From IMG/VR virus record IMGVR_UViG_3300049488_000029, positions 1-34,441 of that record: a stretch of 34,441 nt of DNA. One strand, 5' to 3'. Position 1 is the first letter of the stretch. The number at the start of each line of letters is the position of its first letter. Positions 3,492 through 34,441 of the stretch are shown one piece after another. Below the pieces are notes generated by a model. That model was not told the origin of the DNA. It was given only the letters and a program-made list of their open reading frames with translations, and did no database searches. Made by a program: the position numbers and the translations under genes. This DNA comes from a virus (taxonomy: Duplodnaviria; Caudoviricetes).

Positions 3492-3984
3492 TGCTATTAG
3501 ACAAAAGACAACTAAGGAATTATTTAAGCAATTACTAGGGAAGAATGGGATCATTTCAGTCATTGTTGATCTAATTAAAAAAGGTATCAGCCCAGTTAAA
3601 GGCTTCGCAGGAAGATTCGAGAAATATTCAGACTCTTATAAAAAGAAATTCGGTAAAGGTGAACTTAAAAGTAAAAAGAAATCACCCGTCAACTTAACTG
3701 CAACTGGTGAAATGCTTAATTCTTTATACATTAAACAGGAAGGCAATAAATTATTTGTTATGTCCAAAGGGGCTAGAAATAATAAACTACTTGATATCCA
3801 CAACACTAAAGGGGCTAGTAGAAAGAAAGTCATTAGAAGGCTTTTGCCAACTAACCAAGGTGAAGAATTTTCTCCAAGGATTAATAAACTGCTTTTAGAT
3901 AAAGCAAAAAAGTCACTCACATTCTCACTATTGAAGTTCTTGCCATCGAAGGCATTAAAGATAAAAATTAACACTAATAAATGA
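3457..3984 (+). CDS. Virion morphogenesis/neck protein, paralog 2
   Basis: VNLTATGEMLNSL...HN..G...RRLLP; AGGAG 3445-3449 precedes ATG 3457. Confidence 0.65.
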   Translation: MLGKQITKKINDAIRQKTTKELFKQLLGKNGIISVIVDLIKKGISPVKGFAGRFEKYSDSYKKKFGKGELKSKKKSPVNLTATGEMLNSLYIKQEGNKLFVMSKGARNNKLLDIHNTKGASRKKVIRRLLPTNQGEEFSPRINKLLLDKAKKSLTFSLLKFLPSKALKIKINTNK

Positions 3985-3986
3985 CA

Positions 3987-4018
3987 CCGCTTTACAACTA
4001 AGCGGAATTTGGTAACAT
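3987..4018 (+). promoter_or_regulatory. Putative sigma70 promoter for scaffold/capsid, overlapped by an inverted repeat
   Basis: TTTACA 3991-3996, 16 nt, TGn-TAACAT 4013-4018; CCGCTT/AAGCGG inverted repeat 3987-4005. Confidence 0.5.
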
Positions 4019-4033
4019 AATAGGAGAAAAGCA

Positions 4034-4660
4034 ATGACAGATCAAAGTGCCAATGTCGAAGGACAAGGCAACCAAAGCGAAGGCAATGGAAAAAGTTCAG
4101 AAGTTACACTTGAATCATTAACGAAGATGGTTGAGGAACTGAAAGGGACCAATTCTAGGCTTCTCGATGAATCAAAAAAGAACAAAGAACTTGCTCATTC
4201 GTACAAGAAAGAAAAAGAAGTCTTAGTAAACGAGAAGCTGGAAAGCTCAACAAACTTAGAGGAACAATTAAAAATTTGGAAAGAGAAAGCTTCGAAGCTG
4301 GAAACAGAAAAGAAAGATATCTCTAAAAAAGCTTTAACTGAATCAATTTTCTCTAGAGTTGTTAAGTATGCTCCTAATGCTCATAACCATAAAGACCTTC
4401 TTAATCAAAGCGAATACGCATCAATTCTATATGATGGGATAGATGAAGAAAGCCTTTCAATATCGGATGATGCAGTTAAATTGTATGTGCAAACACTGAA
4501 TGAAAACAAACCTTATCTGTTCAAGCAATCGCAAAGCGTAGGAACATTTAATAAAAAACCACCAACCGAAAACCCTACAGTCGGTAAAAATGTTAACTCA
4601 ATGGATAAAAATGAAATCCTTGAAGCATTGAAAAAACTTGGTGGGAATAGCTTAATTTAG
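4034..4660 (+). CDS. Capsid scaffolding protein
   Basis: Charged coiled coil with KPYLF motif, just upstream of the capsid gene; AGGAG RBS. Confidence 0.8.
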   Translation: MTDQSANVEGQGNQSEGNGKSSEVTLESLTKMVEELKGTNSRLLDESKKNKELAHSYKKEKEVLVNEKLESSTNLEEQLKIWKEKASKLETEKKDISKKALTESIFSRVVKYAPNAHNHKDLLNQSEYASILYDGIDEESLSISDDAVKLYVQTLNENKPYLFKQSQSVGTFNKKPPTENPTVGKNVNSMDKNEILEALKKLGGNSLI

Positions 4661-5974: not shown

Positions 5975-6332
5975 TTTCAAAATTGTTCAACTATTAAATC
6001 CTATTCAATTAAATCTTACAGGTGACATTAATTTTACAGGAGAATATAATAATTCAACTGCATATAATGCACTTGATTCTGTATCTTACAATGGAAGCTC
6101 TTATGTTGCTTTATCATCAACAACTGGGAACACTCCAACTAACACGACTTACTGGCAATTATTAGCTGAAAAAGGTGAAGATGGGGCAGGTGTTACAGAT
6201 CATGGGATGCTAACTGGTTTAAGTGATGATGATCACACTCAATATCATAACGATACGAGAGGAGATATTCGCTATTATACGAAATCTCAAATTGATAATT
6301 TAGTCATAATTAATAGTTTAATATTTGGATAA
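5967..6332 (+). CDS. Virion protein with a CBM5/12-like carbohydrate-binding module
   Basis: GEYNNSTAYNALDSVSYNGSSYVAL...PTNTTYWQLLA plus DHGMLTGLSDDDHTQY. Confidence 0.6.
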   Translation: MSDFKIVQLLNPIQLNLTGDINFTGEYNNSTAYNALDSVSYNGSSYVALSSTTGNTPTNTTYWQLLAEKGEDGAGVTDHGMLTGLSDDDHTQYHNDTRGDIRYYTKSQIDNLVIINSLIFG

Positions 6333-30804: not shown

Positions 30805-31377
30805 TTACCTTTGCTGTAATTTTAATAATTTATCCTTTCCAATAGCTTTAATCTTCTCAAAATCATTACCCATACCAGCATCGAACCAGTCAAATATTGC
30901 ACATTTTAAAAACTTCTCATGCTCAGGCAAGTAGGGAAGTTCAAAAACATGCTTTAAATGCCATTTAAGGTACTTTTCAATGCCTTCCTGCCCCAATAGA
31001 CGGATCATCTCCCCTTTAAGTTTTTCAAACTTCTCTTGCTCTCTTTCGTAAACCGTATCAGATGTCTTTCGAGTATCCTCTTGAGGCATAAAAAGGCGCA
31101 CAGAAGCAACGATTTCTGAATAGCTTGGAAAGTATTGAGTTGTTTCAGCTAGACGATTTAAACCTGATTTGATCGCTGAATAACGGTATCCTGTGCTGAC
31201 AAGCTTGCTTGCTATAGCTTTCTGAGCATCTTTAGTGACTGCCTTAGAATATAACGCAGCAGTATCACGAATCAGCATTTCAACAATGTCAGTCAAAATA
31301 TGAAAACTAGTAGCATTTCTATAATCCATCTTATCAAGCTGTTCAGGTGTTAAATGGTCTTTGTATGCACTGCTCAA
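30805..31377 (-). CDS. Putative helicase loader/inhibitor-like replication protein
   Basis: YFPSYSEI resembles the FPs.aE motif of lambda P/G39P-like proteins; GGAG RBS, TTG start. Confidence 0.5.
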   Translation of the reverse strand: MSSAYKDHLTPEQLDKMDYRNATSFHILTDIVEMLIRDTAALYSKAVTKDAQKAIASKLVSTGYRYSAIKSGLNRLAETTQYFPSYSEIVASVRLFMPQEDTRKTSDTVYEREQEKFEKLKGEMIRLLGQEGIEKYLKWHLKHVFELPYLPEHEKFLKCAIFDWFDAGMGNDFEKIKAIGKDKLLKLQQR

Positions 31378-31459
31378 AACGACTCCAATTAAAAAATGTT
31401 TTAACTTTCTAAATCAAAATTATCCAAAATTAAAGTAAATTAGTATAAATAAAATAATA

Positions 31460-31486
31460 TTTACAAATCTTAAGTTAAGTTATAAT
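31460..31486 (+). promoter_or_regulatory. Putative promoter for the structured RNA
   Basis: TTTACA 31460-31465 and TATAAT 31481-31486 (short 15-nt spacer); AT-rich upstream. Confidence 0.5.
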
Positions 31487-31495
31487 TAATTTCTC

Positions 31496-31882
31496 GTAGC
31501 GGCAGGGGATTAGGCTCTCCCAAGTTATCGGCAATAGTCGCTGCAAGCTGATGATTCAAACCTAATGGGTTGCTCATTTGACGGAAGCAAATCAATGAGA
31601 CTCTAGTTTAAGATTTTACTAATTAGAAATAAATCACTGAATTGGGAATATAGTCCTAGCTTGCTTTAAGCGAAAAGATTCAGGTTTACTACTCTCTTAA
31701 TTTCAAGTCATGTTGAAGGAAGCGCATAAACGCAGGAAGAGTACGAGGATTAAACTTAGAGATTTAACCATCACTAAGATGAGCTTGCTATTCTCAAAAA
31801 GCAAAATATCCAGAATTAAGATGTAGCTAATGAAGCTAAGACAAGTGAAACGAAAGTGTAACGTCACTTTCAAGTAGCCTCG
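31496..31882 (+). ncRNA. Large structured non-coding RNA of unrecognised class
   Basis: At least 13 contiguous helices, several multi-way junctions, G-U pairs favouring the + strand, a possible pseudoknot, no credible ORF. Confidence 0.7.
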
Positions 31883-32009
31883 CTTAAGTAAAAAAACACT
31901 CACATAAGAAAGATTAATTGTTAGAAAGATTACACGCTGCCTTAACTATTATTTCTGATACCATTTAATTAAGACAAACAATTAAGTTTTTCTCATTTAA
32001 TTGGTGTTT

Positions 32010-32357
32010 ATGAAGCCATACTCTTTTAATCACCCTGTTTATCCTCAAACTTTTATTATGTTCAATAACTGGACTAATTCACAAGTTAATCAATGGCTTT
32101 ACGTTAATAAGTATTCTATGGGCGTTGAAATAGAAAACTGCTCAGCTTTAGTCTTTGTGATCGATGGAGTTATCTTTCTTTGGTTTGAAACAACAGAATT
32201 TAAAATTGCCTCCCTTGGAAGATTGGTCCACGAAGTAGGTCACGCTGTAAATTATATGTTTAAGAAAATGGGGATAAAACCAGACTTAGACAATGATGAA
32301 ACATCTTGTTACGAATCGCAATGGTTGTTTTGTCAGATAGCTAAAAAATTCAAATGA
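32010..32357 (+). CDS. HEXXH zincin-like small protein
   Basis: LVHEVGHA with a downstream E (NDETSCY). Confidence 0.65.
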   Translation: MKPYSFNHPVYPQTFIMFNNWTNSQVNQWLYVNKYSMGVEIENCSALVFVIDGVIFLWFETTEFKIASLGRLVHEVGHAVNYMFKKMGIKPDLDNDETSCYESQWLFCQIAKKFK

Positions 32358-33379: not shown

Positions 33380-34269
33380 ACTTTGGCATTCCTTACATGG
33401 GATCAAAATCAAAGATATGCGAGCAAGTTTGTAGGTTATTTCCTAACGCTGAAAACTTTTACGACTTATTCGGTGGTGGTTTTTCAATATCTCACTTCAT
33501 GTTAAAACATAGATGTAAAGATTTTAAACAATTACATTTTAACGAGATACGTGAAGGTGTTTGCGAATTAGTAAAAGATGCAATTAATGGAAAGTATAAT
33601 TATGATAAATTTAAACCAGATTGGATTTCTAGTGATGAGTTTAAGAAAAGAGTTAATAGTGACATATTTGTAAAACTCATCTGGTCTTTTGGAAATAATG
33701 GCAAAAATTATCTTTTCGGAAAAGATATTGAATTTCAAAAAAAAAGCCTACATAATGCTATTGTCTTTAATGAATTTAATGAATTTGCGACTAAGATATT
33801 TGGAGTTAGTAGTTTCCCTAATGGGTTTACCATTATTCAAAAAAGATTACATTTAAAAAATAGATTAAGGATTAATGGCAAAGGAGAACGACTCGAACAA
33901 CTCGAACGACTCCAACAACTCCAACAACTCGAACGACTCGAACGACTCGAATTTTATACTGGAAGTTATATCGATGTTCCAATAAAAGAAAATTCAGTAA
34001 TTTACTGTGATATACCATATGAATCAACTGCTTCTTACGATAAAAATAACTCATTTAATAGGAAAGAATTTCTTGATTGGGCAGCTAATAATAAAGAAGC
34101 TGTTTTTATATCTGAGTATCAAGTTAAAGATGAAAGGTTTAAATGTATTTCTAATTTTGAAAAAAGATCAATGCTATCAAGCGATAAATCAAATACTTTA
34201 ATTAAAATAGAAAAAGTTTTTGTTAATGAAGTTGGATATAAAAGGATTTTCGATGCCAGAAAAAAATAA
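33376..34269 (+). CDS. Dam/D12-class N6-adenine DNA methyltransferase
   Basis: PYMGSK, DLFGGG, YCDIPY (DPPY variant). Confidence 0.88.
   Translation: MNFGIPYMGSKSKICEQVCRLFPNAENFYDLFGGGFSISHFMLKHRCKDFKQLHFNEIREGVCELVKDAINGKYNYDKFKPDWISSDEFKKRVNSDIFVKLIWSFGNNGKNYLFGKDIEFQKKSLHNAIVFNEFNEFATKIFGVSSFPNGFTIIQKRLHLKNRLRINGKGERLEQLERLQQLQQLERLERLEFYTGSYIDVPIKENSVIYCDIPYESTASYDKNNSFNRKEFLDWAANNKEAVFISEYQVKDERFKCISNFEKRSMLSSDKSNTLIKIEKVFVNEVGYKRIFDARKK
33886..33951 (+). repeat. Seven 9-nt tandem repeats (SAACRACTC) inside the methylase gene
   Basis: Encodes ERLEQLERLQQLQQLERLERLE. Confidence 0.97.
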
Positions 34270-34441
34270 AGGTGGAAGACCTAGAAAAGATTTAGAAGAT
34301 ATTAAATTCGATGGCTGGCAGCAGTTAGATGCTCTTGTTGTTTGGTCCAATGAAGCTTACTGTGCTGAAAGATTAGGCATAAGTGTTGATGCTTTAGCTT
34401 ATAAAATTAAAGAAAAAACAGGCTTAAGTTTTTCTGAATAT
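34253..34441 (+). CDS. terS: Terminase small subunit, 5' part (continues through the overlap to 349)
   Basis: MPEKNKGGRPRK... open to the window end. Confidence 0.85.
   Translation, partial: MPEKNKGGRPRKDLEDIKFDGWQQLDALVVWSNEAYCAERLGISVDALAYKIKEKTGLSFSEY
34279..34441. repeat. Terminal overlap, right copy
   Basis: Matches 1-163 with one mismatch. Confidence 0.97.

Follow-up and report, generated by a model that had tools for sequence, protein, structure and literature searches.

A hairpin-rich intergenic gap next to a predicted helicase-loader gene is a candidate replication origin in an uncultured 34-kb tailed phage

At a ColE1-type origin, a G-rich tract nucleates the RNA-DNA hybrid. R-loop initiation at the ColE1 and T4 origins is described in PMC5333043, and the locus that we analyze here would share with ColE1 RNA II and the T4 R-loop origins (PMC5333043 and PMC3016281) an origin without a dedicated initiator, a transcript of several hundred bases and the use of the host replisome. 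This locus is a gap of 632 nt (31378-32009) in a viral record of 34,441 nt, the whole of which we call the window. Several features set the gap apart from the ColE1 and T4 origins: blastn with its DNA gave no match in 72,556 plasmids (or in 50,697 phages) and Rfam gave none, its longest G-run is G4 at 31505 with no long G-tract, and the one candidate antisense unit lies over the 3' end. The promoter of a ColE1-type primer RNA lies several hundred bases upstream of the priming site; in the gap a TATAAT is present, at a frequency that chance would give in this flank. In place of the PriA pathway used by ColE1, we propose that a phage-coded DnaB loader would act.

The lambda O/P and SPP1 G38P/G39P systems are similar in that the gene beside the gap is weakly P/G39P-like and that relatives of the phage have the O-P layout. 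A lambdoid origin has its iterons inside an O-like initiator gene. Here, however, neither an O-like gene nor iterons were found, and the loader-like gene heads a leftward operon with non-coding DNA upstream. As for large phage RNAs, we know of no job for most of them, including GOLLD and ROOL. Like GOLLD (RF02032) and ROOL (RF03087), the gap is a large, gene-free, hairpin-rich phage stretch, but its fold is shorter, matches no model and has no tRNA cluster. The study 10.1101/2024.12.08.627333 describes GOLLD and ROOL as often adjoining tRNA genes, and gives example ornate RNAs of 659 nt and many of over 800 nt.

The record represents an uncultured phage and has a completeness rating of 100%. 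Its ends (1-163 and 34279-34441) overlap by ~163 nt with one mismatch, so it is circular despite its "linear" label; a likely small terminase gene spans the end join. Annotation with PHROGs and Pfam placed the terminase, capsid, tail and lysin genes on the + strand, and indicated a leftward early operon with an ERF recombinase, an exonuclease and an HTH protein and a rightward operon with ParB-N and an adenine methylase, leading to the terminase. The rightward operon opens with a 115-aa gene (32010-32357, +) of phrog_1365, a family of unknown function. The capsid protein has no counterpart in a cultured phage. Within the adenine methylase gene, window positions 33872-33985 hold a short low-complexity repeat of the LEQLERLQQLQQ type.

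The gap sits at the strand switch between the two operons and is, as the original prediction had stated, the longest intergenic stretch of the genome. That prediction proposed a transcribed, structured RNA of about 400 nt at 31496-31882, and described this region as visibly more GC-rich than its flanks, which agrees with the counts: 38.2% GC against 16.1% and 25.2%, in a genome of 33.6%. The remaining gaps, a few of which may be partly coding in that they hold small unannotated ORFs, are at 29.7% GC (Fisher p=0.003). Third codon positions reach 23% GC compared with 38% in the region, and this elevation suggests constraint. Most of the excess comes from the opening 100 nt, where the two 50-nt bins hold 56% and 40% GC; later bins range over 26-42%. 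The preceding AT-rich stretch (31378-31495, 16% GC) is a putative divergent promoter and might contain an unwinding element. All six frames of the gap are closed by 14-24 stops each, the longest stop-to-stop frame within it being 80 aa on the minus strand, so the gap is non-coding, in keeping with the RNA proposal.

All of the helix arms named in that proposal are present at the coordinates given. Domain 1 (31496-31544, +), a closing stem with a GC-rich inner hairpin, is the part with the highest GC and the strongest + strand bias. It is followed by hairpins at 31555-31627 (+) that include the first copy of a stem-then-GGAAGC module, by domains 2 and 3 (31637-31743, +) with the second copy, and by domain 4 (31744-31882, +), a multi-hairpin junction that is the best-folding part. 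Two copies of GGAAGC were present in 3 of 1000 shuffles, for a motif chosen after it had been seen. Directly after the fold lies an A7 run (31890-31896, +) that might serve as a primer end or unwinding point, and an additional AU-rich stem, overlooked in the original prediction, spans 31907-31992 (+; arms at ~31907-31922 and ~31977-31992).

Folding energy against shuffled sequence had been named in advance as a check on the RNA, and the region folds no better than its shuffles. The RNA MFE z was +0.64 on the + strand, where 73 of 100 shuffles did equally well, was -0.47 on the minus strand, rose to +0.87 when the region was extended to 31995, and came to -0.49 and -0.77 for folding as ssDNA. 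Taken separately on the + strand, domain 1 gave z -0.9, the hairpins -0.25, domains 2 and 3 -1.04 and -1.3, and domain 4 -2.21 (-1.78 on the minus strand), such that domain 4 alone stands out; among the 100-nt windows overlapping the fold, none fell below z -1.0 on the + strand. For multi-junction or pseudoknotted RNAs, z-scores can be weak. Perfect Watson-Crick stems of at least 5 bp within 30 nt numbered 15 against 7.0 expected (7 of 500 shuffles), an excess that fades at cut-offs of 4 bp (89 of 500) and 6 bp (104 of 500). Elsewhere in the genome, 387-nt windows score up to a stem z of 2.9, and the grid windows over the gap are not in the top 12 of 262 for stem count.

The evidence on the strand and the promoter of the proposed RNA is weak. 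G-U pairs had been said to work only on the + strand, and the 12 helices that we listed do contain 7 of them, but the argument is circular because the helices were picked on that strand; across the whole region the minus strand folds equally well (-86.2 vs. -87.0 on +), and it is in domain 1 that the + strand is favored (-14.1 vs. -7.7 on -). Pairing does start ~10 nt after a TATAAT (31481-31486, +), as claimed. As a possible -10 box, however, this hexamer has no -35 at 16-18 nt, was not called in the promoter scan and turns up in 316 of 1000 shuffled versions of the flank, so the promoter is weak. The only terminator-like site of the region is on the minus strand (31872-31851), at the last hairpin of domain 4. 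No + strand terminator was found before the gene at 32010, and the final stem ends within 20 nt of its start codon. Together with a promoter-like site at 31977-31948 (-), the minus-strand terminator-like site would give a ~90-nt antisense RNA overlapping the fold at its 3' end, the promoter-site counts behind this prediction being at chance level.

As expected from the original prediction, which had placed the RNA in no recognized class, no Rfam family matches the gap: a scan of the whole window at E<=1 returned one irrelevant match (E 0.9), and the gap alone at E<=10 returned two, both sub-threshold. A match of the gap to rli62, at 24 bits against a cut-off of 83, was taken as chance. The GOLLD model RF02032 gave 0 matches at E<=10 and none in the all-family scans, and RF03087 (ROOL) was absent from the all-Rfam scans of the window (E<=1) and gap (E<=10). 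ARAGORN and Rfam were both blank for tRNA and tmRNA (0 genes in the window by ARAGORN), the hallmarks of which had been reported as lacking. The same was said of introns, and for group I this agrees with 0 matches to RF00028 at E<=10 and with flanking genes that diverge, leaving no interrupted host gene. By eye, stretches near 31598 and 31650 look like group I P7 strands, with P3, J3/4 and J6/7 misfitting. A hammerhead ribozyme needs an invariant catalytic core and a non-G cleavage site; 31820-31868 has its three-stem layout by eye, but A occupies position 5 of the core and G occupies position 17, and Rfam gave no match. We also rejected a CsrA/RsmA sponge RNA, as GGA occurs 6 times against 5.4 (454 of 1000 shuffles) and ANGGA 2 times against 1.95, and a DnaA-dependent origin, as the gap has two one-mismatch sites and no DnaA-box cluster. 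Genome-wide, matches to the DnaA-box consensus numbered 96 against 122 expected. We found no description of this element in the literature, and one 16-nt motif was absent from six of the nine supplementary files of PMC10690425.

Searches for homologs reached one other copy of the phage, a second assembly that is 99.9% identical with the gap unchanged. It was found via the loader gene in viral contigs, as one of 15 and one of 10 candidates and as the same contig both times. The same route gave 0 of 14 viral contigs with P0008, 0 of 20 with a distant subgroup, 0 of 595 metagenome contigs, and 1 of 19 genome contigs, where the match was spurious and lay in an unrelated gene of a bacterium. Loader profiles matched 0 of 22 and 0 of 56 related records, and no loader relatives were found among annotated phages. 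Gap DNA gave 10 short matches (E 0.009-0.17) in 30 capsid-related records; of these, the match in L048 is coding sequence. nhmmer with the gap over 150 and then 84 loci returned self only, plus one match at E 4.3. Three covariance models, each low-powered because it was built from essentially one sequence, gave 0, 1 and 0 matches in 68 records, the single match (14.7 bits) lying in DNA that reads as coding, and in 53 loci gave the self control plus matches of 17.1 and 16.3 bits only. When viral contigs were scanned for exact motifs, one scan returned 13 stretches (1 self and 12 similar in the motif alone) and a second scan 1 (self), and an exonuclease-based scan covering 39 of 64 parts showed no close relative among the matches listed. 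Relatives with 55-64% identical loader proteins and 57-62% identical exonucleases are on contigs of 34-37 kb; these closer relatives are known here from proteins alone, and the blank in the homolog search therefore says little.

The gap lies directly 5' of the first gene of the leftward operon (30805-31377, -), whose 190-aa product is a predicted helicase loader or inhibitor of the G39P/lambda-P type (N-terminal helical domain). The protein has no Pfam, PHROG or other HMM match. By ESM Atlas features it scores 0.93 and 0.92 to clusters that include G39P_N (11%) and lambda P (14%) proteins, and the AlphaFold (AF2) model has a pLDDT of 91. In fold searches, SPP1 G39P was listed with Z 4.7 at rank 36, behind unrelated AAA+ lids, viral P/G39P/loader rows appeared at E 0.3-0.6, and in searches of the PDB the loader entries ranked behind unrelated helical proteins. 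Entries for G39P, lambda P or helicase loaders thus appear with the language-model features and in each of the three fold searches, always below threshold. The protein family comprises 64 clusters at E<=0.001, two rows of which are long repetitive proteins and probably false. Searched against 6 proteins, the family profile gave a weak match (E 0.003) to the P-like gene of L017, and that gene matches a helicase-loader PHROG at E 0.0033. From this weak but consistent evidence, we regard the 190-aa protein as a putative helicase loader or inhibitor, in line with the "helicase-loader-like" label of the original prediction. G39P-type proteins can inhibit DnaB, according to the title of 1no1 and to PMC4926192.

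The relatives, which were found via capsid, ERF and exonuclease genes, have an O-like initiator after their divergent promoter and, behind the initiator, either a short gene at the place of the loader (in L017, L020, L041 and G021, with a loader-family match in L017 only) or a helicase (L037 and L179). In the complete genome studied here, a PHROG scan of the 49 ORFs found ERF, two exonucleases and RusA but no initiator, helicase, primase or polymerase. Three PHROG initiator families searched against the genome with stops read through gave nothing at E<=1, and tblastn of five initiators gave a best E of 0.43. A profile built from six O-like initiators matched 8 of 12 related records (5 of these had supplied seed sequences and 3 were independent) and missed this genome. 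The absence is suggestive only, because the profile also misses 4 of the 12 relatives, including G017, whose initiator PHROGs detects, and because the early region contains several small unassigned ORFs of 40-122 aa. The missing initiator, overlooked in the original prediction, offers another role for the gap.

We tentatively propose, with a probability of roughly 0.3, that the gap is a replication origin opened by a rightward transcript of ~390-500 nt and not by a phage initiator protein. What points to an origin is that the gap is directly upstream of the loader-like gene in a genome where no initiator was found. The raised GC also counts in favor, as does G017, where a short initiator is at once followed by a folded 220-nt element, although that element has no detectable homology to the gap. 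Host RNA polymerase would start near 31493-31496, and the locally folded transcript would re-hybridise to its template as an R-loop, in the manner of ColE1 and T4. The displaced strand or the AT-rich flank could then turn single-stranded, the 190-aa protein may capture host DnaB and place it there, and host primase and Pol III would complete replication. Weighing against a transcript-opened origin are the lack of a thermodynamic signal, the weak promoter, the absence of iterons and of a DnaA-box cluster and a G-run of only 4, as well as a loader call that is below every significance bar for a protein that may inhibit DnaB. The presence of ERF, two exonucleases and RusA would also allow recombination-driven replication. 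Should the gap prove to be a real folded RNA, the absence of an initiator would provide that RNA with a specific and testable job, and the proposed origin, if true, would couple RNA priming of the ColE1 type with a helicase loader of the lambda type. We think it doubtful that a clade of ~34-kb tailed phages replaced its O-type initiator with a folded RNA of 390-500 nt that forms the origin R-loop while a P-like loader delivers host DnaB, which would make an RNA-initiated lambdoid replicon.

The RNA could instead be a stand-alone ornate transcript of ~390-500 nt, the first of a new GOLLD/ROOL-like family made early in infection and unrelated to replication, which we hold to be rather unlikely. 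The sharp GC step at 31496, 10 nt past the TATAAT, would fit such an RNA, as would helices that tile the region without overlap, A-rich linkers, the repeated stem-GGAAGC module, the marginal excess of short stems and RNA-like stretches in two relatives (L028 and L032), but the z of +0.64, the lack of a + strand terminator, of an Rfam match and of a homolog in the collections searched, and the absence of the nearby tRNA seen with GOLLD and ROOL all argue otherwise. Of the predicted transcribed large ncRNA of unrecognized class, then, the non-coding status, raised GC and lack of an Rfam family stand, whereas the fold, no better than shuffles, and the weak promoter and strand evidence do not sustain it: the gap is a lead, not a new RNA class. 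Shuffles that fold as well or better are just what would be seen if the helices were those of any 38% GC sequence, perhaps with one or two real regulatory hairpins, in an ordinary divergent promoter region with an extended 5' leader for the rightward operon. The position at the operon strand switch, the missing terminator ahead of the next gene and the last stem within 20 nt of the 32010 start codon are consistent with this explanation, to which we likewise give a limited chance, as the divergent regions of relatives measure ~120-240 nt and are mostly AT-rich, compared with 630 nt and 38% GC here, and as it leaves the missing initiator unexplained. If the gap is a mere leader or promoter it is ordinary, yet the start of replication in this phage still needs explaining.

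The gene-content argument applies equally to an origin that works at the level of DNA, where hairpins or protein sites in duplex or ssDNA would be bound by a small unrecognized phage protein or by host restart proteins and any transcript would be incidental. AT-rich sequence on both flanks and a stem excess in Watson-Crick pairs, workable on both strands, agree with this, but ssDNA z values of only -0.49 and -0.77, the lack of iterons and of a DnaA-box cluster, and a primosome-site motif that found no confirmation in the literature make it improbable in our estimation. We consider it very unlikely that the gap is the decayed remnant of a protein gene such as a former initiator: in length and in lying 5' of the loader it does resemble the slot of an O gene, and its GC is near coding level, but each frame contains 14-24 stops, no initiator similarity appears with stops read through, and the second assembly carries the identical sequence. 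Compared with these alternatives, the transcript-opened origin is the reading that we prefer.

Intergenic elements in the relatives were also observed. In G017, a 180-aa HTH initiator is directly followed by a 220-nt multi-hairpin element (L028 531-752, corresponding to L235 ~6078-6300, +) with a 9-bp closing stem and z -2.83. It has no Rfam match and no second copy in the fetched loci, and its homology to the gap is undetectable (the + strand score was equalled by 71 of 200 shuffles); as a candidate ncRNA or origin, it folds better than the gap. A second RNA-like intergenic stretch, L032 2508-2760 (+), shows GNRA-type loops by eye, with z +1.43 and neither an Rfam match nor a homolog. Just 5' of ParB-N, four relatives have a conserved hairpin of 12-18 bp (L020 3740-3850, L017 3780-3890, L028 3245-3345 and L032 2820-2910, all +), whose stems differ while CTTCC is in or at the loop. 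It folds better on the + strand in 3 of the 4 and is a candidate small cis-regulatory RNA or terminator; a profile search found it nowhere beyond these four relatives and not in the window. The G017 cytosine-methylase-like gene has overlapping frames at L235 3667-4590 (307 aa) and 3681-4511 (276 aa), both minus. Finally, L017 (2189-2260) and L020 (2125-2197, +) have one tRNA match each (~51 bits), in the same place after the replication genes.
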